Shown here: one piece after another, positions 46,762-57,527 of the stretch
Numbering within the stretch: the stretch's first letter is position 1
How the letters are laid out: every line of letters begins with the position of its first letter
NCBI GenBank assembly: GCA_035276475.1
Contig: DATELQ010000004.1
Location: forward strand, 12,154 to 76,153
DNA length: 64,000 bases
DNA from: Thermoanaerobaculia bacterium
Lineage (GTDB): Bacteria > Acidobacteriota > Thermoanaerobaculia > Gp7-AA8
Direction of reading: 5' to 3'
Position numbers and translations under genes: made by a program
The notes under the pieces: generated by a model
What the model was told of the DNA's origin: nothing
Database searches by the model: none
Seen by the model: the letters and a program-made list of their open reading frames with translations, nothing else

Positions 46762-47055
46762 ATGCAAGCTACGGCGACCGTTCCGGAGCTTAGCCGCCGG
46801 CTTGGTGCCAATGCGCGCTCGCTGGTGCGGACATCGCCGGCCAACGCTCGCGTGACGGCGGCAGTCGTGCTCCTCCCGCATGCGCCTGTAAAGGAGATCA
46901 TCGCGCTCCTGCAGAAGGCTGGCTGCGAAATGCTCTATCGCGTCGATTCGCAGCACCTCCTCGGCGTCGACGCACCGGTCGGCCTGCTCGACCGTCTGGC
47001 GCGCCTCGACGGCGTCACGTACGTCGAAGTCGAATACTCGCTTCAGCCTTCCTGA
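46762..47055 (+). CDS. stand-alone subtilase propeptide/inhibitor I9-like protein
   Basis: 'VVLLPHAPVKEIIALLQKAGCEMLYRVDSQHLLGVDAPVGLLDRLARLDGVTYVEVEY' follows the Inhibitor_I9 pattern; AAGGGGG SD; 3' end overlaps convergent S8 gene by 13 nt. Confidence 0.5.
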   Translation: MQATATVPELSRRLGANARSLVRTSPANARVTAAVVLLPHAPVKEIIALLQKAGCEMLYRVDSQHLLGVDAPVGLLDRLARLDGVTYVEVEYSLQPS

Positions 47056-48860
47056 AGAAAGTCCTCCAGCGCAATCGTCTTCTCGCCGGCCGGCGTCAGC
47101 TCGAGCGCCTGCTTCACATTCAGCGACCCGAAGCCATAGGCCGCATCCGGTTTCTCCGGCGGATCGCTCGACGCACGCAGAATCGAACGGATCACCCAAC
47201 TGGTGAGCTCGGGGTTCTTCTGGAGCATCAGCGCGATCACGCCGGCCACGATCGGCGTGGCCATGCTCGTGCCGGACATCCTGAGCCGCACGCCCTTTTC
47301 GGGCGTGCCCTTCGCCTTGGTCGAGACGATGCCGGAGCCCGGCGCCACGAGATCGGGCTTCGTTCGTCCGTCCCGCGTGCCGCCGCGCGAGCTGTTGGGC
47401 GAGACCATCTTCGCAGCGCGATTGAGGTTGCCGACGGCCACGCAACGATGTGACGTGGCCGGCGTCGTCGTCGACCGGCGCGTGTCGCCGTCCGTCCCTT
47501 CGCCGATGAACTCCGGCTGGCTGTAACCCTTCCCGGAGCGCTCCACCCAGGCGTCGACCGTCCCGTGCCGCACGCGATCGGCGATCAAACCGATTCTCCA
47601 GGTGCCGGCGCTGGCGTCGCCGGAAATGCGGATGCGGATCCGCGCTTCGCCGTTTTCAGGCGCGAAGCGGACGGAATCGATTTCGACGTCGACGTCGCAC
47701 TTCGTCGTCAACACCTTCTCATAGGGCGCACGAACTTCATCCAGCGGCGGGTGCTTCTTATTTTCGTGCGGGCATTGCACGACGACACCCATTTGATCGA
47801 CGGCCGAATACCAGATCTCCACGATCGTCGGCGCGGATTTGGCGTGGTCGGGGGCAATCCTCAGCTGCAGCTCCCTCCGCTGGCCCTCTGTGAATTTCAA
47901 CGTCGCGTGCTGCGCCGGCTGATGCTGATTGCCGGCGGCGACGGCGGCGGCGTAGCCGCCGCTGGTGAGGTGGCTGTCGATGGTGCGCTCGAGAATCGAC
48001 TCGCCGTCGTGCGCGCCGAGGTTCTGTCCGAGGCTCATGTTGATGACGCAGGGGCGCCCCTTTTCCAGTGCTTTGGAAAAGATGTACGCGACCGCCGCCG
48101 TCAAATTCGTCGAATTCGTCAGCGTAACGTTCCGGTCCTCTTTCCGGGCCGCCACGAAAATGATATCGGCGTGCGGCGCGACGCCCACATAGGAACCGCC
48201 TTCGCGGCCGCCGGACGATCCGGAACGGCCATTGCCCGCCGCAATCCCGGTCACATGCGTTCCATGCTCCTGGGACTGATGCCGCACGACTTTCTCCGGG
48301 TCGGTCAAGGCCTCCGTCAAATACTTGTTGGTGTACTCGACGCCGCCGAATTGGTGCTCCGGATCCTCGAATTCGGGATCCTCCGCTTCTCTCTTCAGCG
48401 TCTGGTCCCACAAATAGAGAATGCGCGAGCTGTCGCCGTCGATGAAATCGGGCTGCCGCCAATCGAGACCATCGTCGATGATGCCGATGATCACGCCGCG
48501 GCCGCGGTTTTTCTGGTCGATCTCCGGAATGTCCGGAATGCCGAGGGCGGGAATGGTCTCGTCGAGGGCAAACGCGATCGGCGCCCCTCGCTCGAAGTAG
48601 CTCACTTCCGGCGCATCGTGGAGCGCGTCGATCTCCGGCAGCGCGAGATAGGCCGCCCACGTCTGTGGGGCGACGCGCATGCGAGGCTTGCCTTGCAAGG
48701 CCTTCGGCAGTTCCTCGCCGCGCAGCACCACGAGCAGCGGAACGAGCATCTCCTGTAAGGAGCCGTCGGCTGCCAGGCTGCCGACGAGACCGCTCGCTTC
48801 GTTCGAATGCCACTCGCGCATGAGGCGCCGAATCTCGGGATCCGCTTTCGAATATCGCAT
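47043..48860 (-). CDS. S8 family serine peptidase (subtilase), no signal peptide
   Basis: Asp 'IIGIIDDGLD', His 'HGTHVTGIAAG', Ser 'GTSMATPIVAG'; GAGGAG SD 8 nt before ATG at 48860; N-terminal region itself I9-like. Confidence 0.85.
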   Translation of the reverse strand: MRYSKADPEIRRLMREWHSNEASGLVGSLAADGSLQEMLVPLLVVLRGEELPKALQGKPRMRVAPQTWAAYLALPEIDALHDAPEVSYFERGAPIAFALDETIPALGIPDIPEIDQKNRGRGVIIGIIDDGLDWRQPDFIDGDSSRILYLWDQTLKREAEDPEFEDPEHQFGGVEYTNKYLTEALTDPEKVVRHQSQEHGTHVTGIAAGNGRSGSSGGREGGSYVGVAPHADIIFVAARKEDRNVTLTNSTNLTAAVAYIFSKALEKGRPCVINMSLGQNLGAHDGESILERTIDSHLTSGGYAAAVAAGNQHQPAQHATLKFTEGQRRELQLRIAPDHAKSAPTIVEIWYSAVDQMGVVVQCPHENKKHPPLDEVRAPYEKVLTTKCDVDVEIDSVRFAPENGEARIRIRISGDASAGTWRIGLIADRVRHGTVDAWVERSGKGYSQPEFIGEGTDGDTRRSTTTPATSHRCVAVGNLNRAAKMVSPNSSRGGTRDGRTKPDLVAPGSGIVSTKAKGTPEKGVRLRMSGTSMATPIVAGVIALMLQKNPELTSWVIRSILRASSDPPEKPDAAYGFGSLNVKQALELTPAGEKTIALEDFLQEG

Positions 48861-48871
48861 CGTCGTTCTCC

Positions 48872-49249
48872 TCAAGAGCCGATGGAGAGCCAAATCGTTT
48901 GCCGGTACCAGGCAAAGTGAAAATGCTGGAGGAAGTCCCTTCCCAGAATGTTGGCGTTCAACCTCGCAAAGCCGCCCACGATCGAAACGAAAAACGGTGC
49001 GGCACCGAGGTGAAGGAGGCACGGCGCGTAGTGCAGCACGGAGCCGGCCGGCGTCTTCAAAAACGGGGTCTTCGCTGCTTTTTCGACGTCGTATCCGAGG
49101 GCGGAGGCCAACGAGTCGTCGACGAGCGTGTGCGAGCTGCCGGTGTCGATGCTAAACACCGCCGGCAGGAACCGCCCCGATGGGCCGGCCACGGAAAGGA
49201 CGATCCTCGGCTCAGTTTCGCTGCGCGATTGGAACGTGAGCGCAGTCAT
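48872..49249 (-). CDS. retropepsin-like aspartic protease (Asp_protease_2 type)
   Basis: 'FSIDTGSSHTLV' DTG active-site motif and C-terminal 'NILGRDFL' flap/dimer motif as in retroviral proteases; ATGA coupling with upstream gene. Confidence 0.7.
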   Translation of the reverse strand: MTALTFQSRSETEPRIVLSVAGPSGRFLPAVFSIDTGSSHTLVDDSLASALGYDVEKAAKTPFLKTPAGSVLHYAPCLLHLGAAPFFVSIVGGFARLNANILGRDFLQHFHFAWYRQTIWLSIGS

Positions 49250-49827
49250 TCCGGCCGCTCCGGCATTCTCCAGAACAGAATCCCGTCCGTTTGGGCAATT
49301 CGTTGCGCGAGCTCGTCGAGCGTCGCCGCGGAATCGACGACCTCGGTGCCGTTGGCGGCGATCCACTTCGTGGCGTGCTGCTTTGCCAGAGACGCGTAGT
49401 TCTTGTGGACCCATTGCGCGGCCGGCGACCCTTGCCGCACGCGCCTCGTCGTGCACGCCTCCTGGATCGACGCGGCGACGCGCTGGTAGACATCGCCGCC
49501 CGACCGCGAATGCGCCGCGTTGATGTAGTCCCACACGCCGAGGCGCATCGCCCGTACGCAGAACGGCGCGTCGACGATCGGCGCAACGAGGATGACGACC
49601 GGGATCGCCGCGAGCAACGGCCGGATGTCCGAAAGCTCGCTCGTTTCGTTGTTCGTCCAGCGTACGGCGATTTCAAATTGCACTTGATCGCGCTGAATCT
49701 GTTCGACGGCTCCCGGGTGCGCCACGACGGCGGAGAGCGGGGTCTCATCGACGGTCGTGTGCTCGAGAAAATCCTTTACCTGGTTCATCACGCCGTTGTT
49801 CGTGGGGTCGAAGAGGATCACCCTCAT
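49246..49827 (-). CDS. receiver (REC)-like protein with degenerate phospho-acceptor site plus C-terminal unknown domain
   Basis: 'MRVILFDPTNNG' and 'PVVILVAPIVDAPFCVRAMRLGVWDYINAAH' match REC beta1 and beta4/alpha4-beta5; no Asp at the expected beta3 position; ATGA overlaps on both sides. Confidence 0.55.
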   Translation of the reverse strand: MRVILFDPTNNGVMNQVKDFLEHTTVDETPLSAVVAHPGAVEQIQRDQVQFEIAVRWTNNETSELSDIRPLLAAIPVVILVAPIVDAPFCVRAMRLGVWDYINAAHSRSGGDVYQRVAASIQEACTTRRVRQGSPAAQWVHKNYASLAKQHATKWIAANGTEVVDSAATLDELAQRIAQTDGILFWRMPERPE

Positions 49828-52800
49828 CCTCTGCCACCCCGCATCCTCGTCGGCAGTGTGATGAGGAATTCAGCGCCCGACTGCCGCTCCGGCGACGAGA
49901 TCGCTCCGGAATGGGCGCCGATGAAGCGCTTGGCGATAACCAGGTGATCGCCAGGATCGCCTCCGAACGAGGCCAACGCCTCGAGCTTGTCGGATGGCAG
50001 CGGCGGCCCTTGATCGGACAAGCGGATCTGGATGGTGTCGCCATTCGTGCCGAGGGAGAGCGACAGGGCCATCGGAAACGACGGCTCGGCGGCGGCGGCG
50101 GAACGGTCGCCGATGATCTCGGAGAGCGCGTTGTCGACGGCGACGGTGTCGACTTCCGCCTCCAGCCGGCCGGCAGGCAGGATCGGCTCGATGGCGACGT
50201 TGCCTGAGGCGTTTTGACGGTCGATGAACGCCCGGACGAACGCCGTCACGTCGACCCTCGACGGACGGATCTCCGGCTCGGCGCGAACCTCGGCGATGTC
50301 GTTGAAGATCTGTTCGATCTTCCGGAAGAGCTCCGTCAGCGCGCGCGTGTGGGTGACGTCGCTCCCCGCGCGCTCGAGCCGGTAGACGATTCCCTTCGCC
50401 ACTGTGAGGTTCGTTACGAGCTGTTCCGTTCCTTGCAGAACGACGCTGCGCATCGTCTCGTCTTTCGCGTCCGAGATCCTCGTCTCCTGCAGCGTCAGTT
50501 CATTGAGCGCGGCCCCCGCCTTTCCGATGGCCGCGAACATCGTCCGGTCGAACGAATGGAACCACCCGCGGGCGTGATGCCAGAGGTTCAGAACCGCCAG
50601 GCACTGGTCCTCATGGACAAGCGGAATGCCCACGAAGCCGTGGACCCAGGGCACCGGCGGACGAGCCGGCACGGAGACCTGGATGTCATACTCGAGAAAC
50701 GGCTCTTTTTGCTCGACGGCAATGTTGGTCAGGAACTTCGGGTCATTGGTAAGAAAGGAGAGGTCCTGTGTTTCGGATCCGGTCCAGTCTCCACTGATCG
50801 CGAACGTTTCCCACCGCGGCTCTCTCAGCACCATGAAACGCGCCAGATCGGCTCCCAATAAGCGGCACACGCGGTCGGTCCATTGTTGCAGCACGTGCTT
50901 CCGGCGCGTTCGCCCGGGCGGCAGCGGCGTGTCGTCCGACACCAAACTGAACCACTCCCAATCCGCCATTTTGGCAGTGGCCTCGAACGGATCCCGCGAT
51001 AGCAGCTTCGTCGCGTATTCGACCATGGCTTCGATTTTCTCAATGAGATCGTCGGAGAGCTCGTCGGCGTCGCTCGCGCGGTCGACGTTCACGTTCAAGA
51101 TGCCCTTGAATGCCGGCACAGGCCCTTTATGCGCCGTCGTGCTGATCCGCATGAGCAACACCGATTTGTCTTTGCTCGGCGACGCAATGAGCTTGGAGAG
51201 GTGTTGTGCGGAAACCTCAGTCGCCGCGGCCTTCCGCACGGATTTGTAGACCGTTTTCGCGCCGCCGACGGCCCGCAATGCGGCGAGCAGTTGCGCATTC
51301 TCAAAAAAGATCGGCGCCGGCACGGGCGAACGGCGCGGCCAGATGTCGAGGGCGACGAAGCGCCCTTCCTCGAACTCGTGATAAAAAACGACGGTCGCAT
51401 CGCGCCGCTCATTGTGAATGGCCTGAATGAGCGTGCGGATGGTGCGGTCGTTGTCGGGGACTTCGAGCATCAGGCGTTTGAGCCGCTCGTCCCACGGCAC
51501 GGGCTCGGCATCGTCGCCATATCCGAGGTCCGCGAAGAGATGCCCGGCCGCGCGCAGCCACTCGTGCCGGTATTGCGCTTCCTCCCGCGCGAAGGCCAAC
51601 CCGAGCAGGGCACGCTCGACCGCGGGCTGAAGATCCTTTTCCATGTTGGCCTTGCTGAGCTCCAGCGCCAGCGTCAGCTCCGTCTCGCGCGAGGCACAGG
51701 CGATGCGCAGCACGTCCGGAAGGTTGCGGATGAGCCGCTCCCGGTCGCTCTTGCCGAGGGCGCGGATACAGGCCGCGGCGCACGCTTCGTGCTCGCCGGC
51801 GTCGCCTCCCTCCACGAACGTCTTGTCGTGGACGGAAGTGAGGCGCCGCTCCACGTGCGCGGCGAGCGCGGCGAGGCTCGCCGGCGGCTTCGTCGATTTT
51901 TTATCGCGCTCGATGCGCCGGTCCACGAGCAACGTGATGATGGTGACGGTGTAGATCTCCAAATTCTCATTCGACGCGGCGGCGTCGAACAGACGCTCGA
52001 AGATCTCGTAGATTTTTCCGGGATCGCCGTACCCGCCCCCCTGCCTGCGCCAGGCTTCGTATCGCGCGGCCGCTTCGCGCAGCACATTGCGAACCCATTC
52101 CCCGTCGCCGGCCTGTGCGCGCCCTAAGAGTCGCTCGATGTTGCTGATGCCGTCGGGGCTGTTGAGGTCATAGTTCTCCTCATCGTCGAACAGCGCGGCG
52201 CTCGGCGACGGCATGGCCTCGTAATCAGCGTCGTCGCCCGACTCGACGAGCGTCTCGCCGCGCAGGAGCGCTTCCTTCTTCTCGTCGATGAACGCTAGGA
52301 GCCGGCTCGACTGCGCCGAATGCCGATACTCGGCGAGTTGGCGCACGGCCTCGGAACGCCCGAAGCGGTGCGACGATCCGGGCGAGTTGATCGACAGCCA
52401 TTGAAAGCTGACGATGTTCGCCCGCGACCGCTGGATGAACGCCGAGGCGATCTCCGGCGTCATCCGGTTGATGACGACGTAGATGACGGCCTCGCCCGCG
52501 TACGCCAGCGCCTCCAGGAGGCGCGCCACTTCCGTTCCCGACGAGGCGGCGAAGCAGAGCGCTGCGACCTTCATCCCTTCCAGGCCGAACCGGGCCCTGC
52601 CTTCGAGATCGTCGAGCGTCTTGATCGATGATGCCTTGCTGATCGACGGGCGGAGCGTCTCCGGCAGCGCCTGCTTGGCATCTTCGGCCAGCACGAGAAC
52701 GTCCGGCTTGAATCGATCGATCTCGTCGTGGATCGTCTGTTGAAAGGCAGCGTGCGAAAGCAGCTTCCGCGGCCAGATGTACGTCGGAATCTCCTGTCCG

Positions 52801-55256
52801 CGAAAGATGACCCGGTTCCGGCTCAAGGCGTGGGCATCGGCGAGGAGGCGCCAGAAGCGGCCGTCGGTGAGCTTCTTCTCGCGGTCGCTGGTGCGGCGCA
52901 GCGGCAGAAGCGAATCGCTGTCGATCGTCACCATGCGCCACTCGGCTTCCGGGCCGCTCGTCGGCTTCTCGCGGAGTTTCTCCACCGGCACTGTTGCCAG
53001 CGCTTTGAAGCGGCCTTTTCCGCGCAACGCGGAGAGGGCCTTCCATTCGCTCCATTCCGACGCCGACAGCGTGTCGAGGAGGCAGAGGATCCATCCCTCG
53101 ACATTGCTCTTGGCGAACTCCTCCGCCGCAAGGTTCAGCGTCCGCCCCGAACCGCTGACGCCGACCAGGAAGACCACTCGTTTGCCGGGACGCAATTCCT
53201 TGCCGAGCTCTCGGACGGCGTCTCCGCCATGCACGTCCTTGTAGTGCGGCAGATTCACCGTGTCGATGGCCGGGAGCGCTTTGAGGGCCAGCGGCAGGAG
53301 CCGGTCGGCATAAATCGAAAACGAGATGGCCATCTGCGGCGCAATGCGGAGGATCTCCTTCTCCAGCCACTCGTCGGCGAGGCTTTGCATCTCGTATTTG
53401 TGCTCGAGAAACCGCGGCGGGACGTAGACGTCGCAGAAGCGATTGCCGGGGAGCAGATACCAGACTCTCTCCTCCTCGGCGCGCTGCCGGGCGATGTCCT
53501 CCTGAACGAGGGTCTCGACGTGGATGGGGAGGAGAGCGCGGAACGCGGCGTGGCTGAGCGCGAAGACGTCGAAGGCCGGCTCGATGTAGACGATCGTTCC
53601 GCGGCTGACCATGCGCACGACCGACTGGTTTCGGGACAAGGCGTCGTGGACCCAGTTGCGCTCCGCCTTCGTCAACGCGCTGTCGCCGTCGTGGCTGAAG
53701 CGGTCGAGAGTGACGGGCTCTCCTTCGATGGCCGCGTTGATTCCGTCGACGAGAACGCGGCGGGCGAGCTCCGTGTCGCCCGCGTCGCCCGCTTTCCTGA
53801 GATTCTCGTTGTCGACGAGAAAGTTGTGCACGACGCTGCCGGCGCGCGTCTTCACCGTCACCGCCGGAGCGAGAACGCCGTGCTCGCGCCAGAGCTCGAC
53901 CAGCGGCTCCGCCGTCGAGAGGATGGTCTGCGTCCGCGTCGGAGCATTCAGCAGCCAGAGACGATGCTTGGCGGAAACGAGGAACGTCCGGGCGATCGCC
54001 GCGGCCGCGCTCTTGAGCGACTCCTCCTGCCACCCGTCCGTGCCGCTCATGTCGACGAAGAGCACGTCGTGCGGCTCCAGCGTGGTCACTCTCTGCGAGA
54101 TCTGGTCGGCGTCCGCCGCCGTCTCCAGCGGAAGGGCGACGGGGTTGAACGCGGGAAGGTCGCTCGCCGTCGTGTGAACGAATACGTAGGTCTTGCGCTT
54201 CTTGGGCGTTCGATGCGGCAGAAGGATCTGGAAGTAGCTTCCGGCCGGCGCCCACGGGCCCGGCGTCTCCCTCGGCGCCAGGGCGTCGCGCTGCAGCGGA
54301 TCGTTGAAGAAGTCCCAGAACAACTCCACGCCGCCGCGGCGGCCTTCGAAGTCGTATCCGGAATAGGCATAGAGCACGCCGCGGAACTGGCGGATTTTCT
54401 CTTTGACCGCCCACAGGCCGCGCGTGTGCTGCCGAAGCGTTTGCTTGCTCGTCGAATAGGCGTCGAAGGCCCACTCGGCGATCGCTTCCGGCCGCGTCTT
54501 CTCGAAAGCCTTTGCCGCCTTCCGCAGCGAATCGACAAAGCCGACGCCCGCGTCGCCGATGACGATCTCCGTCACGCCGTCGTGGCTGATGTTTTGGAAC
54601 AGCCGCGCCTCCCATTCGGCGGCGTGAACATTGCGCTGCGCGGCGGTGCGAGCGTCGGGGTTGCTCACGTGCGCGGTTGCGAATCCCGGCACCGTGCCGG
54701 CGGAATGTTCGGCGGCGTTTGTCCAGAGCTCGTGAACGACGACGTCGGCCAGCCCGGAGACGTCGTACTCATCGGAGAAGCCGGCCGTCTCCAGCACGTG
54801 CGCCAGCTCCTTGTCCGCCGACCAGTGCTGCAGGTCGGGAGACGTATTGGCCGCCTGGATGGCTTGCAGATCGAGCACCCGCGGCGTCTTGCTCTGGCGC
54901 CACTGCTGCGCGTCCGCAGCGTTGACGTTCACCTTGAATTGATGTTCGTGAGCGAGGGCGATGAATTTCCACCGCTCCAGAAAGGCGCTCGTCGTTCCCG
55001 AGGCCGGAAGCTCGACCGAAACCGTGGTCGCGCCGGCAACGGCCAGCCGCTTCACGATCAGCGACAGCGCCACCAGCGGGAGGTGGCCGATCCACGTCGC
55101 GCGGCGCAGATCGATGACCGCGTCGACGTTGCCGAGCTGCCCCGAGCCGCGACGTCCGAACTGCGCTTCGTACTGCTGTAAGAGGTTCTGGTACTGCTGA
55201 CTGCCGAGATAACCGTCCTCGCAGTCGGCGGGGACACCGACAGTAATCGTCGCCAA
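49824..55256 (-). CDS. 1810-aa multidomain sensor protein: N-terminal GHKL-ATPase-like segment, P-loop-like/PRTase-like middle repeats, GAF-like domain, C-terminal histidine-kinase HATPase_c
   Basis: N-terminal 'VVVHELWTNAAEHS ... EIVIGDAGVGF'; central 'RVVFLVGVSGSGRTL'; GAF-like 'VHGFVGIPLVHEDQCLAVLNLW'; C-terminal N-box 'VDNALSEIIGD', 'IRLSDQGPPLP', 'GGDPGDHLVIAKRFIGAHSGAI'. Confidence 0.85.
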   Translation of the reverse strand: MATITVGVPADCEDGYLGSQQYQNLLQQYEAQFGRRGSGQLGNVDAVIDLRRATWIGHLPLVALSLIVKRLAVAGATTVSVELPASGTTSAFLERWKFIALAHEHQFKVNVNAADAQQWRQSKTPRVLDLQAIQAANTSPDLQHWSADKELAHVLETAGFSDEYDVSGLADVVVHELWTNAAEHSAGTVPGFATAHVSNPDARTAAQRNVHAAEWEARLFQNISHDGVTEIVIGDAGVGFVDSLRKAAKAFEKTRPEAIAEWAFDAYSTSKQTLRQHTRGLWAVKEKIRQFRGVLYAYSGYDFEGRRGGVELFWDFFNDPLQRDALAPRETPGPWAPAGSYFQILLPHRTPKKRKTYVFVHTTASDLPAFNPVALPLETAADADQISQRVTTLEPHDVLFVDMSGTDGWQEESLKSAAAAIARTFLVSAKHRLWLLNAPTRTQTILSTAEPLVELWREHGVLAPAVTVKTRAGSVVHNFLVDNENLRKAGDAGDTELARRVLVDGINAAIEGEPVTLDRFSHDGDSALTKAERNWVHDALSRNQSVVRMVSRGTIVYIEPAFDVFALSHAAFRALLPIHVETLVQEDIARQRAEEERVWYLLPGNRFCDVYVPPRFLEHKYEMQSLADEWLEKEILRIAPQMAISFSIYADRLLPLALKALPAIDTVNLPHYKDVHGGDAVRELGKELRPGKRVVFLVGVSGSGRTLNLAAEEFAKSNVEGWILCLLDTLSASEWSEWKALSALRGKGRFKALATVPVEKLREKPTSGPEAEWRMVTIDSDSLLPLRRTSDREKKLTDGRFWRLLADAHALSRNRVIFRGQEIPTYIWPRKLLSHAAFQQTIHDEIDRFKPDVLVLAEDAKQALPETLRPSISKASSIKTLDDLEGRARFGLEGMKVAALCFAASSGTEVARLLEALAYAGEAVIYVVINRMTPEIASAFIQRSRANIVSFQWLSINSPGSSHRFGRSEAVRQLAEYRHSAQSSRLLAFIDEKKEALLRGETLVESGDDADYEAMPSPSAALFDDEENYDLNSPDGISNIERLLGRAQAGDGEWVRNVLREAAARYEAWRRQGGGYGDPGKIYEIFERLFDAAASNENLEIYTVTIITLLVDRRIERDKKSTKPPASLAALAAHVERRLTSVHDKTFVEGGDAGEHEACAAACIRALGKSDRERLIRNLPDVLRIACASRETELTLALELSKANMEKDLQPAVERALLGLAFAREEAQYRHEWLRAAGHLFADLGYGDDAEPVPWDERLKRLMLEVPDNDRTIRTLIQAIHNERRDATVVFYHEFEEGRFVALDIWPRRSPVPAPIFFENAQLLAALRAVGGAKTVYKSVRKAAATEVSAQHLSKLIASPSKDKSVLLMRISTTAHKGPVPAFKGILNVNVDRASDADELSDDLIEKIEAMVEYATKLLSRDPFEATAKMADWEWFSLVSDDTPLPPGRTRRKHVLQQWTDRVCRLLGADLARFMVLREPRWETFAISGDWTGSETQDLSFLTNDPKFLTNIAVEQKEPFLEYDIQVSVPARPPVPWVHGFVGIPLVHEDQCLAVLNLWHHARGWFHSFDRTMFAAIGKAGAALNELTLQETRISDAKDETMRSVVLQGTEQLVTNLTVAKGIVYRLERAGSDVTHTRALTELFRKIEQIFNDIAEVRAEPEIRPSRVDVTAFVRAFIDRQNASGNVAIEPILPAGRLEAEVDTVAVDNALSEIIGDRSAAAAEPSFPMALSLSLGTNGDTIQIRLSDQGPPLPSDKLEALASFGGDPGDHLVIAKRFIGAHSGAISSPERQSGAEFLITLPTRMRGGRG

Positions 55257-55337
55257 TCCGGCTCCTCTCCCACACCTCGACCTGTCGTAGGAGTGACGGA
55301 GAGCGAAGTTTCCCTACCCGGTGGTTGCGACCGCCGC

Positions 55338-56153
55338 CTACGGATTCACATGATCCCAAGCCAGCGTCTCGTAATACATCGTCTGCATTCTGGCCACATT
55401 GAGATTCCATAGGTCTCGCCGCGTCTTCCCCCGCCGGCTGTCCTGGTGATAGCCGCGGAGGCTGTCGTCGTGATCGCGATAGGCCATGGAAAGCTCTTCC
55501 GAGACGGCGATGCGCAGACCCGCATTGCAAAGGTACAGAGCCGTCAGCTTCGCAACGAGTACGTCCTCGACGTTGACAAAGTCCGGATGGTAGACGCCGT
55601 CGATGCGCAGCGTCTCCTGGTTGTACGTTTTCATCCCCGCCAATACCTCCGGTTTCCACATGATCGAACTGACGGGATACGGCGCGATGCCTCGCGCGAC
55701 ATAGTCGCGGGCCGACAAGCTGAAATCCGGTTGATGAATGATCCGCCGACGCTGGCGGTCAATGGCGATCGGGCCGAGCGCCGCTCCGACATCAGCCGGC
55801 TCGAGCGCGTTCGCGCGCGACGCGATGTCGAACATGAGGTCATCGGAATGCAGCGGGGTGACGGCGGCGATGGTCTCGTGCCCTTTGAGCACGGCATCGA
55901 TGCCAAAGTTGAGCGCATTGGAAGCGGTCTTGAGATCGCTCTTCTTTCGCTCCCTCCGCAGATACCGGATCCTCCGGTCGTCGTATTTCTTCAAGACCCG
56001 CTGGATCCCGTCGGGATCGGGCGACCCGTCATCGACAATCACGTGCAGATGCGCCGACGGAAGTTTGTGGACGCTGGACACGCAGCGATCGAAGAGCGTC
56101 AATCGGGAAGGAAACTCGGGCGATACGTAGACGGGGGTGATGATCGCGATCAA
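55338..56153 (-). CDS. glycosyltransferase family 2
   Basis: 'IAIITPVYVSPEF' and 'VIVDDGSPD' GT2 DXD-region. Confidence 0.8.
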   Translation of the reverse strand: MIAIITPVYVSPEFPSRLTLFDRCVSSVHKLPSAHLHVIVDDGSPDPDGIQRVLKKYDDRRIRYLRRERKKSDLKTASNALNFGIDAVLKGHETIAAVTPLHSDDLMFDIASRANALEPADVGAALGPIAIDRQRRRIIHQPDFSLSARDYVARGIAPYPVSSIMWKPEVLAGMKTYNQETLRIDGVYHPDFVNVEDVLVAKLTALYLCNAGLRIAVSEELSMAYRDHDDSLRGYHQDSRRGKTRRDLWNLNVARMQTMYYETLAWDHVNP

Positions 56154-56179: not shown

Positions 56180-56830
56180 ATGCGAACGCTGGCGCTGCTG
56201 CTCCTGGCTGCCGCAATCCCCGGCTTCCCCTCAAAGCCCCAACTCCTCGGCGCCCGCTCCGCGCACTACGACCTTCGCGTCGCGCGCAGCCTCGTCTCGC
56301 CGCAGGAGGTGGCGTACGACGTCACCGTCGTCGACCTCGAGAGCGGCAAGACCGTGCTGAAGTCGCGCGTGACGGGCAAGCAGGCGGAAGCGATCGACGT
56401 CGATGGGCAAGAAGACATCCGCGTCCACCTCGGCTACACCGAGCATTTCTTCTCCGCCACCCTCACCGCGCGCGGCGTCGAAGAGCTGCGCACGTGGTGG
56501 CAGCTCGAGCCGCTGACGCCGCAGGTCATCCACGCGCCGGGCGCCTTCCGCGTCGGCGGCGAGGTCGCGCCGCCCATCGCCGTCCGCCGCGTCGAGCCGC
56601 TCTATCCCGAAGCCGCGCGGCGCAACGGCGTTCGCGGCAGCGTCGTCCTGCAGGTGCTCGTCGGGAAGGACGGGCGCGTCAAGGATGCCGTCGTCGTCCA
56701 AGGCTTGCCGTACGGCGTCGGCGACGCGGCGCTCGACTCCATCCGCAAGTGGGAATTCCGTCCGGCCACGCGCAACGGCGTACCGGTCGACGCCATCTTC
56801 GACATCACCTATAGCTTCAGAATGTGGTGA
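56180..56830 (+). CDS. TonB C-terminal domain protein, secreted
   Basis: Signal peptide; C-terminal 'YPEAARRNGVRGSVVLQVLVGKDGRVKDAVVVQGLPYGVGDAALDSIRKWEFRPA' TonB_C fold. Confidence 0.7.
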   Translation: MRTLALLLLAAAIPGFPSKPQLLGARSAHYDLRVARSLVSPQEVAYDVTVVDLESGKTVLKSRVTGKQAEAIDVDGQEDIRVHLGYTEHFFSATLTARGVEELRTWWQLEPLTPQVIHAPGAFRVGGEVAPPIAVRRVEPLYPEAARRNGVRGSVVLQVLVGKDGRVKDAVVVQGLPYGVGDAALDSIRKWEFRPATRNGVPVDAIFDITYSFRMW

Positions 56831-56837
56831 GGCACTC

Positions 56838-57527
56838 ATGCGAAAACTGCCGCTCCTCCTGCTCTTCGCCGCCCTCCCGACCTTCGCCGCAACTCTCGGC
56901 GCCCGCTCCGCGCACCACGAGCTGCGCCTCGAGCGCAACGTCGTCTCCGCCGAGCAGATCGCGTACGACGTCACCGTCGTCGATCTCGACAGCGGCAAGA
57001 CCGTCCTGAACGCGCACCTCAGCGGCAAGCCGGGCGAGGCGCTCGACGCCACCGGCGGCGACAAAGGCCAAGCCGTCCGCGTCCGCCTCGCCTATTCCGA
57101 GCACTTCTTCTCCGCGACCGTCAACGTCATCGACGGCAAGACCATCGTCGACGAGTTCCGCACCTGGTGGCAGCTCGAGCTCCAGCGCGCGGCACCCGCA
57201 GCAACACCGCCCAATGCCATGGCGCCGTACCGCGTCGGCGGCGACGTCAAGGCGCCGGTCGTCATGTACCGCGTCGCGCCGAAATACACCGCCGAGGCGC
57301 GGCAGAACCACACCAGCGGCATCGTCATCCTCGAGGCCATCATCGACAAGGATGGCCGCGTGAAGAACGCCGCGGTCTTGAAAGGCCTCCCCGACGGTCT
57401 CGACCAAGCGGCGCTCGACGCCGTCAAGCAATGGGAATTCCGGCCCGCCACCCTCGCCGGCCAGCCCGTCGAAGTCATCTTCAACCTCACCATCAACTTC
57501 AAGCTCGACGAACCGAAGGAGAACTGA
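56838..57527 (+). CDS. TonB C-terminal domain protein, secreted (tandem paralog)
   Basis: Same architecture as the upstream gene, ~50% identical by eye; start chosen inside ORF 56685..57527. Confidence 0.7.
   Translation: MRKLPLLLLFAALPTFAATLGARSAHHELRLERNVVSAEQIAYDVTVVDLDSGKTVLNAHLSGKPGEALDATGGDKGQAVRVRLAYSEHFFSATVNVIDGKTIVDEFRTWWQLELQRAAPAATPPNAMAPYRVGGDVKAPVVMYRVAPKYTAEARQNHTSGIVILEAIIDKDGRVKNAAVLKGLPDGLDQAALDAVKQWEFRPATLAGQPVEVIFNLTINFKLDEPKEN

Follow-up and report, generated by a model that had tools for sequence, protein, structure and literature searches.

To our knowledge, few bacterial retropepsin-like proteases have been characterized; the known examples, APRc, RimB, and RloA, all act in the envelope or in ribosome modification. 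Here, we report a predicted free-standing retropepsin-like (clan AA) aspartic protease of 125 amino acids (aa) and the operon that encodes it, found in 64,000 nucleotides (nt) of a soil acidobacterium, a Thermoanaerobaculia bacterium (GenBank assembly GCA_035276475.1, contig DATELQ010000004.1, positions 12,154 to 76,153, forward strand); the whole of this stretch is called the window, and positions are counted from its first letter. Throughout the family to which the protease belongs, the gene is near-universally paired with a directly upstream gene for a DUF5678-like protein, a near-obligatory association.

APRc of Rickettsia, an outer-membrane protein whose catalytic domain faces outward, has three transmembrane helices predicted in its N-terminal region and takes part in autotransporter processing (PMC4140852). 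RimB and RloA of Pseudomonas, from the RimABK and Rlo systems, are small retropepsin-like peptidases with the DTG motif at the homodimer interface (PMC11957791, PMC12239564), and characterized retropepsins homodimerize (PMC12239564, PMC11957791). RimB, the cytosolic orthologue (PMC12239564), acts in concert with the ATP-grasp ligase RimK, trimming the poly-glutamate of RpsF (PMC11957791). RloA carries signal peptides and is secreted (PMC12239564); the Rim and Rlo systems pair their peptidases with an ATP-grasp ligase and a transglutaminase-like protein (PMC11957791, PMC12239564).

The protease gene lies at positions 48872 to 49249 on the minus strand, reads from an ATG at 49249 to a TGA at 48872, and encodes MTALTFQSRSETEPRIVLSVAGPSGRFLPAVFSIDTGSSHTLVDDSLASALGYDVEKAAKTPFLKTPAGSVLHYAPCLLHLGAAPFFVSIVGGFARLNANILGRDFLQHFHFAWYRQTIWLSIGS. 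A sequence-only reading of the window had pointed to DTG and ILGRDFL motifs in a 125-aa open reading frame (ORF) but gave no strand; both are confirmed on the minus strand, and the plus-strand translation of 48872 to 49249 contains neither. Read directly from the sequence, FSIDTGSSHTLV begins at residue 32, with the codons of the catalytic D35-T36-G37 at 49139 to 49147 (minus strand), and ANILGRDFLQHF begins at residue 99, with the codons of N100-I-L-G-R-D-F-L107 at 48929 to 48952 (minus strand). Hydrophobic residues precede the triplet (F-S-I-D35-T-G-S), as in retropepsins, and the second signature (I101-L102-G103-R104-D105) has the hydrophobic-hydrophobic-Gly order followed by Arg-Asp of the psi-loop (GRN) motif. 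The proposed equivalence of this signature to the IIGRNLL of human immunodeficiency virus (HIV) protease holds, with ILGRD aligning with the LIGLD segment of DDI1 and the LLGMS segment of ApRick.

Only two Pfam protease families matched the 125-aa protein. Asp_protease_2 (PF13650), the profile against which the sequence-only reading had asked for a check, recognized residues 29 to 70 above its threshold by a narrow margin (25.3 bits; gathering score, 24.3; E value, 2.6e-5), and the sister model gag-asp_proteas (PF13975) scored 24.4 bits, under its cutoff of 28.2. The only NCBIfam clan-AA model matched was TIGR02281 (clan_AA_DTGA), whose curated cutoff of 57.95 was not reached (19.4 bits); the window protein has DTGS rather than the DTGA of that model, and no membrane-anchoring N-terminal region. 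No N-terminal signal peptide or hydrophobic N-terminus was seen in the 125-aa protein by eye or by hydropathy.

A word-indexed single-sequence homologue search returned one close relative only, and exhaustive phmmer against 1.84 billion representative proteins returned six at an E value of ≤1e-3, which argues for a small, divergent subfamily. Profile searching enlarged the family to 90 proteins, mostly of 138 to 143 aa. Invariant residues were D35, T36, G37, N100, G103, and D105 in an alignment of 8 sequences, and D35, G103, and D105 in an alignment of 87, where P14, G37, G52, R99, N100, and L101 were conserved in at least 90%. Conservation of the catalytic Asp in relatives, on which the sequence-only reading had staked its assignment, is thus complete in the 87; 84 of them keep D[TS]G at the active site, with Thr or Ser at position 36 in all but 3.

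The family profile (87 relatives) reached only retropepsin-fold entries in the PDB (the DDI1 RVP domain, E value 2e-5; ApRick, 1.4e-4; feline immunodeficiency virus [FIV] and equine infectious anemia virus [EIAV] proteases, about 0.015), and the unrelated fold that would have spoken against the assignment did not appear. A structure modeled with AlphaFold2 from the 8-sequence alignment was unusable (predicted local distance difference test [pLDDT], 50.8), and the 87-sequence alignment was used instead, giving a single-chain model with a pLDDT of 93.2 and a predicted template modeling (TM) score of 0.86. Foldseek placed APRc (5c9f) first among PDB structures (E value, 4e-8; TM score, 0.76; 124 aligned columns), followed by the EIAV, FIV, Rous sarcoma virus (RSV), human T-lymphotropic virus (HTLV), and HIV proteases and DDI1; there were 52 PDB matches at an E value of ≤0.001, and the 50 listed were all aspartic proteases of the retropepsin, DDI1, or pepsin type. 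Pfam, the PDB profile search, the predicted fold, and the conserved catalytic Asp together support the view that this is a free-standing retropepsin-like aspartic protease with predicted activity, as had been proposed.

The DNA here is GC rich (62 to 73%) and long ORFs are common in all six frames, so that length alone is no proof of coding. The 125-aa protease gene is real and not a chance ORF: homologues sit in the same operon position at 29 to 95% identity and keep DTG, N100, G103, and D105, and the ratio of nonsynonymous to synonymous substitution rates (dN/dS) was 0.25 against a 94%-identical homologue (L019; loci compared with the window carry the prefix L), a value derived from only 9.5 synonymous and 7.5 nonsynonymous differences. 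All operon genes fell between 0.06 and 0.34. On the same 96.6-kb metagenome-assembled genome (MAG) contig, NCBI lists a 106-aa member of the protease's 90%-identity cluster as "aspartyl protease family protein" (HKS21226.1), so the identity of the protease is not new at the annotation level, and the protein is a new member of a known, already annotated kind. The NCBI length equals a GTG start at codon 20 of the 125-aa frame. We favor the ATG start of the 125-aa form because E13 and P14 are conserved among relatives, because the modeled N-terminal strand (residues 3 to 7) is confident, with a pLDDT of 89 over the first ten residues, and because this ATG overlaps the upstream stop codon as ATGA.

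The gene directly upstream (49246 to 49827, minus strand; recognized by homologues, its junctions, and a sub-threshold Pfam match) encodes a 193-aa partner with a pseudo-receiver followed by a C-terminal DUF5678-like domain. The latter covers about residues 132 to 193 (49249 to 49434, minus strand), as delimited by the Pfam match (residues 147 to 177), a local hidden Markov model (HMM), and alignment. The partner aligns throughout with partners that pass the threshold of DUF5678 (PF18929), and its gene has the coupled, same-strand, upstream position that defines the module. Homologous loci repeat the arrangement. DUF5678 stands at the C-terminus of the upstream gene product in L003, L004, L005, and L007, follows an HTH_17 domain in L006, and is combined with Response_reg in the precomputed annotation of L010/L011 (a Brocadiia MAG); two deltaproteobacterial MAGs (L017 and L018) have free-standing partners of 105 to 110 aa that reach 39.6 and 32.5 bits (gathering score, 23.2).

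An unbiased test of the pairing used a degenerate DNA pattern placed wholly inside the protease gene (DTG ... N-x-L-G-R-D-F), searched in genome and metagenome collections, with each match checked by translation and local HMM to separate true family members from chance matches. A true member was held by 18 of 24 metagenomic loci, and in every one of these 18, the ORF immediately upstream was DUF5678-like and in the same orientation, as it was in 2 of the 4 true genome loci. DUF5678 was the sole match in all 10 upstream ORFs sent to Pfam (7 above the gathering score). Dropped as chance matches were L012 to L014 from the genomes, two Bryobacteraceae MAGs among them, and L020, L022, L026, L034, L035, and L042 from the metagenomes; no DUF5678 match was found in these 9 loci. 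After clustering at 90% identity, 28 distinct protease genes remained; the upstream sequence could be read for 27 of them, and 25 of these had a partner. A local HMM made from partner C-termini recognized 17 of 19 clusters not used in its building, and a profile search with the partner alignment returned at least three proteins.

A typical member is a compact cassette, in which an upstream gene for about 100 aa abuts or overlaps a protease gene for about 140 aa. The small partners have a Lys/Arg-rich basic tail and end in ...R[IM]GL-COOH, a motif absent from receiver-linked partners and from those of the window's clade. True receiver partners stand behind a histidine kinase in L007, L010/L011, and L016, and a Pfam DUF5678 match was obtained on the receiver partner in L007 and L010/L011. 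The sequence-only reading had missed both the C-terminal DUF5678 domain and a convergent 97-aa gene described below; of the protease's neighbors, DUF5678 is more informative than the subtilase.

Two further observations concern the cassettes themselves. One contig carries a tandem DUF-RP-DUF-RP arrangement (L025, 91 to 1685, and L029, 1 to 1400), whose protease copies fall into separate 90%-identity clusters. A stop-codon readthrough fusion of DUF5678 and protease, by analogy with Gag-Pro, was considered and rejected, as the two genes are in frame across a single stop in about 5 of about 22 distinct pairs, no more often than by chance; these pairs (L017, 5059 to 5805; L018, 3442 to 4197; L024, 891 to 1547; L025, 861 to 1685; L030, 610 to 1497) are read as probable tight coupling, not readthrough. 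Searches of PDB sequences with the DUF5678 profile and with the 193-aa partner returned nothing significant. In the literature, we found no paper on DUF5678/PF18929 in this context, none tying retropepsins to two-component systems or to such an output, and none on this protease family or on the five-gene arrangement of the window.

That arrangement begins, on the minus strand, with a gene for an 1,810-aa sensor-kinase-like protein (49824 to 55256), followed by those for the 193-aa partner, the 125-aa protease, and a 605-aa subtilase, and then by a convergent plus-strand gene for 97 aa. The 1,810-aa and 193-aa genes overlap as ATGA at 49824 to 49827, and the 193-aa and protease genes do so at 49246 to 49249; an 11-nt spacer carrying a GGAG Shine-Dalgarno sequence (48868 to 48871, minus strand, read from the junction) separates the protease stop from the subtilase ATG (48860). 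The coupling of the protease to a pseudo-receiver and a subtilase, as described from sequence, is therefore borne out by both junctions. The full five-gene order recurs in three loci (L005, L009, and L019), where the proteases are about 37%, 50%, and 94% identical to that of the window, and the partial loci L001, L002, L003, and L004 agree with this order.

The term pseudo-receiver is likewise apt. In the partners of the window, L003, and L005, the DD pair has been lost and three residues are deleted where the acceptor Asp would stand, whereas the true receiver-DUF5678 homologues of L007 and L010 retain the DD pair and the acceptor Asp (TDM); no Pfam Response_reg match was found for the 193-aa protein. 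The 1,810-aa protein, 40% identical to its L005 homologue over the full length, was classified by sub-threshold matches and homologue alignment, with a C-terminal GAF domain (GAF_2, under its gathering score) and a degenerate HATPase_c (24.7 bits; gathering score, 26.4). Where the true kinases of L010 and L016 carry the H-box His, members of the window's clade carry E, Q, or G; D, F, or T takes the place of the N-box Asn, and the G2 box has been lost. The 193-aa protein thus has neither the acceptor Asp nor the acidic pocket of a classical receiver, the 1,810-aa protein does not have the H-box His or intact N and G2 boxes of a classical kinase, and classical phosphotransfer is excluded on both sides.

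Conservation of the 1,810-aa protein is best at residues ~180 to 300 (54350 to 54720, minus strand; 69% identity to L005), where GHKL-like motifs were noted by eye (HELWTNAAEH, GDAGVGF, and TRGLWAVKEKIR); farther downstream, a phosphoribosyltransferase-like VFLVGVSGSGRT and AASSGTEVARLL, also noted by eye, are conserved. A segment-wise Pfam scan found nothing in the first ~1,450 residues, and a PDB sequence search with the N-terminal 400 aa returned nothing significant.

The subtilase gene (S8; 47043 to 48860, minus strand; PF00082, E value 8e-41) has all four catalytic-motif signatures (Asp, IIDDGL; His, HGTHVTG; Asn, NMSLG; Ser, GTSMATP), with an insert of ~255 aa between the Asn and Ser motifs. 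Its best curated match was the clostridial NCBIfam model CspBA (E value, 1.4e-53; residues 77 to 584), at 182 bits against a cutoff of 1,250. A subtilase follows the protease in L001, L002, L004, L005, L009, and L019. The convergent 97-aa gene (46762 to 47055, plus strand) and the subtilase gene share 13 nt at the 3' end of the latter. Its product is 62% and 42% identical to the proteins at the same convergent position in L009 and L005, both of which have a precomputed match to PF26036 (Peptidase_inhib_put), and is accordingly called inhibitor-like. Its dN/dS against L019 (0.06) is the lowest in the operon. NCBI lists a 76-aa member of its cluster on the same MAG contig (HKS21224.1); conservation among homologues favors the 97-aa form.

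GC content is slightly lower in the operon (0.62 to 0.65; window positions 47000 to 56000) than in its flanks (0.68 to 0.73), which is compatible with horizontal acquisition. The neighborhood comprises a glycosyltransferase, TonB-like genes, a polysaccharide lyase, and an ATP-binding cassette (ABC) transporter, and is not a defense island. Upstream, the neighbor is a GT2 glycosyltransferase in both the window and L019; in L005 (29 to 3475, minus strand) the divergent upstream neighbors are a phospholipase D (PLD)-like protein (PLDc_2, 556 aa) and an unannotated 589-aa protein. Because L005 differs in this way from the window and L019, the PLD-like and GT2 neighbors are placed outside the conserved unit. 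Tandem paralogues on the plus strand (56180 to 56830 and ~56838 to 57527) have signal-peptide-like N-termini (MRTLALLLLAAA and MRKLPLLLLFAALP, respectively), share blocks such as GARSAH..L....V....AYDVTVVDL.SGKTVL, and have C-termini that are TonB-C-like in appearance.

We propose that the protease is the catalytic half of a two-gene module and the coupled upstream DUF5678 protein the other half. The protease would be a single-domain and probably cytoplasmic enzyme; one DTG per 125-aa chain means that a homodimer would be needed to build the two-Asp active site. Because the two genes are coupled and covary, a physical complex of their products is suggested, in which DUF5678 may bind the protease and gate its activity through dimer assembly or occlusion of the cleft. 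Input would come from the partner's variable N-terminal part, which may be absent or a basic tail, an HTH (helix-turn-helix) domain, a phosphorylatable receiver, or a dead receiver. With true receivers, dimerization driven by phosphorylation could itself bring the two protease chains together; in another version, the cleft would be plugged by the conserved C-terminal tail of the small partners until this is released. In the window's clade, the loss of phosphotransfer on both sides suggests that the 1,810-aa protein probably regulates the 193-aa partner through binding or a change in conformation, not by phosphorylation. The module of this clade has, in addition, acquired the Csp-like subtilase and the convergent inhibitor-like gene. 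The active retropepsin would then probably act on the inhibitor or on the N-terminal region of the subtilase, so that the locus would work as a two-step proteolytic switch gated by a signal. Such a cascade, at which the sequence-only reading had also hinted, is plausible, given that the subtilase and inhibitor-like genes are conserved neighbors.

We lean toward this overall picture (a DUF5678-gated retropepsin with pseudo-signaling input and a subtilase/inhibitor target) with confidence a little better than even; the fold, the module, and the degenerate signaling parts are much firmer than the gating and cascade steps. Several points weigh against it. Binding, gating, dimerization, and substrate are all things that we infer from sequence. 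The DUF5678 match of the window partner is sub-threshold (16.8 bits; gathering score, 23.2; residues 147 to 177), so that its assignment is made by consistency across homologues. In two exceptions to the pairing, L015 (Gemmataceae) and L016 (Rhodothermales), the upstream protein is DUF5678-like by eye only. Three relatives of the protease have altered triplets with the Asp kept (DCG, DSD, and DAG; proteins P0029, P0057, and P0067) and may be inactive or altered variants. The subtilase link is confined to one small clade and absent from most family members, and the protease therefore does not need the subtilase to function. Assignment of the 97-aa protein as an inhibitor derives from the PF26036 matches of the two homologues; a Pfam scan of the protein itself gave no match, and the idea that it is a copy of the subtilase prodomain was rejected, as BLASTP found no similarity to the subtilase N-terminus. 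Finally, no evident signal sequence or convincing membrane segment was seen in the five operon proteins, by eye and hydropathy only.

Other readings of the locus were weighed as well. One, a spurious ORF in GC-rich DNA with a protease motif arising by chance, could appeal to the many long overlapping ORFs in all frames of the region and to the marginal Pfam score, but is refuted by the homologues that keep the motifs in the same operon position and by the confident retropepsin-fold model; with the dN/dS value and the independent NCBI annotation of the gene, it has practically no chance of being right. A retropepsin-fold adaptor, serving as a dimerization or binding scaffold without protease activity, would fit the few altered triplets among relatives (DCG, DSD, and DAG) and the degeneracy of the remaining signaling components of the operon. 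We consider it very improbable, as all 87 relatives have the catalytic Asp, 84 of them within a D[TS]G triplet, the window protein has canonical DTG and ILGRD, and the protease gene is under purifying selection. The pair might instead be a dedicated processing unit, in which the DUF5678 protein is the substrate and cleavage releases or destroys its N-terminal receiver, HTH domain, or basic tail, as in regulated transcription-factor proteolysis. Strict adjacency and coupling of the two genes are in keeping with this, as is the conservation of the partner C-terminal domain (with the tail ...R[IM]GL in small partners) beside variable N-termini, and APRc and retroviral proteases cleave precursors that contain or adjoin them (PMC4140852). 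However, we found no conserved linker resembling a cleavage site, receiver-linked and window-clade partners do not have the tail motif, and the conserved subtilase and inhibitor genes of the window's clade are left unexplained, so that we hold this reading to be quite doubtful.

Unlikely, in our assessment, is a toxin-antitoxin-like or abortive-infection module, with a toxic retropepsin held by a stoichiometric DUF5678 antitoxin and set off by degradation or displacement of the partner, for instance upon phage infection; the kinase-like protein and the subtilase would then be clade-specific additions. The compact two-gene cassette, sometimes in tandem (L025/L029), has the look of such a system; the L006 partner has HTH_17 like a classical antitoxin and lies next to resolvase and RHS genes, the subtilase has weak IetS-like matches, and PADLOC has distant retropepsin-like candidate defense models, PDC-M08B and PEPT_D. 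PDC-M08B (PDLC04402/04403/04405) is the ~127-aa retropepsin-like B component of the candidate defense system PDC-M08, and PEPT_D (PDLC01133) is the aspartyl protease of Sulfolobales type III CRISPR operons, as listed in PADLOC. Both are only distantly related to the protease family (best match, L015; E value, 7e-7). In PADLOC-DB 2.0, the window protease matched PDC-M08B only (E value, 0.011), short of membership in the system, and nothing was found for the 1,810-aa protein. Against such a module, the window proteins have no significant PADLOC match beyond a generic subtilase model, DUF5678 partners do not match PDC-M08A, the motif pattern had no matches in viral contigs and tblastn none in plasmids, the neighborhood is not that of a defense island, and the attachment of DUF5678 to true receivers encoded behind histidine kinases speaks for signaling, not addiction.

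A bolder form of the DUF5678-gated picture would make the DUF5678-retropepsin pair an unrecognized signal-gated intracellular protease switch and a new response-regulator output: receiver dimerization, or in the window's clade a conformational signal from the 1,810-aa ATPase-like sensor, would join two DUF5678-bound protease monomers, and in that clade the active dimer would destroy the free-standing inhibitor or the prodomain of a cytoplasmic Csp-like subtilase, unleashing bulk proteolysis in a caspase-like, two-step cascade for programmed dormancy, cell death, or antiphage defense. Taken as a whole, this chain of steps is speculative and improbable.

The undescribed part of the locus appears to be the module, that is, the DUF5678 partner, its recurrent receiver wiring, and the five-gene pseudo-two-component/subtilase/inhibitor set. 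DUF5678, a domain without assigned function, would gain a proposed role as a protease-docking or gating domain in a protease family with at least 90 metagenomic members over several phyla. The receiver-linked loci suggest a two-component pathway with an obligate-dimer protease as its output, and the window offers a compact five-gene set (sensor, dead receiver-DUF5678, retropepsin, subtilase, and inhibitor) for what would be a bacterial intracellular protease cascade. Should the mechanistic steps fail, the finding reduces to a correctly annotated, uncharacterized aspartyl protease.

Among described systems, APRc is the best structural match and also the best single-sequence PDB match to the window protease. 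Both are bacterial, lie outside retroelements, and have one DTG-type motif per chain and a hydrophobic-hydrophobic-Gly signature. In contrast to APRc, the window protease is a 125-aa protein without a hydrophobic N-terminus, encoded in an operon whose proteins are without evident signal peptides; sequence identity is only ~20%, and no DUF5678 partner is described for APRc (PMC4140852). RimB and RloA are closest in logic, as small enzymes in an operon-encoded system with a dedicated partner or substrate, but the window operon has no RimK, ATP-grasp, or transglutaminase gene, and the partner is a DUF5678 protein. With the retroviral proteases (HIV-1, FIV, EIAV, and RSV; MEROPS A2) and the DDI1 RVP domain, the window protease shares the fold, the same two signature motifs, and one catalytic Asp per chain, which implies an obligate dimer. 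The family-profile E values to these are only 1e-2 to 1e-5, however, and the window gene lies outside any polyprotein or retroelement, without Gag or Pol context, and encodes neither the UBL nor the UBA domains of DDI1.

For the subtilase only, the clostridial germination subtilases CspB and CspC (NF040809 and NF040808) provide the best curated match and share the large Asn-Ser insert. Csp proteases act in the proteolytic activation cascade of spore germination. The window subtilase differs in a score far under the cutoff, an acidobacterial host with no germination context, and a separate convergent inhibitor-like gene. Two-component systems are resembled most directly by L007, L010/L011, and L016, in which histidine kinase, receiver protein, and protease genes follow one another in this order and are tightly coupled, so that the protease looks like the output of a phosphorelay. 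The window's clade departs from these systems in having no H-box His, N-box Asn, G2 box, or acceptor Asp, and the family as a whole would depart from them in its output enzyme, which is a separate polypeptide, proposed to be recruited via DUF5678, rather than a fused domain.

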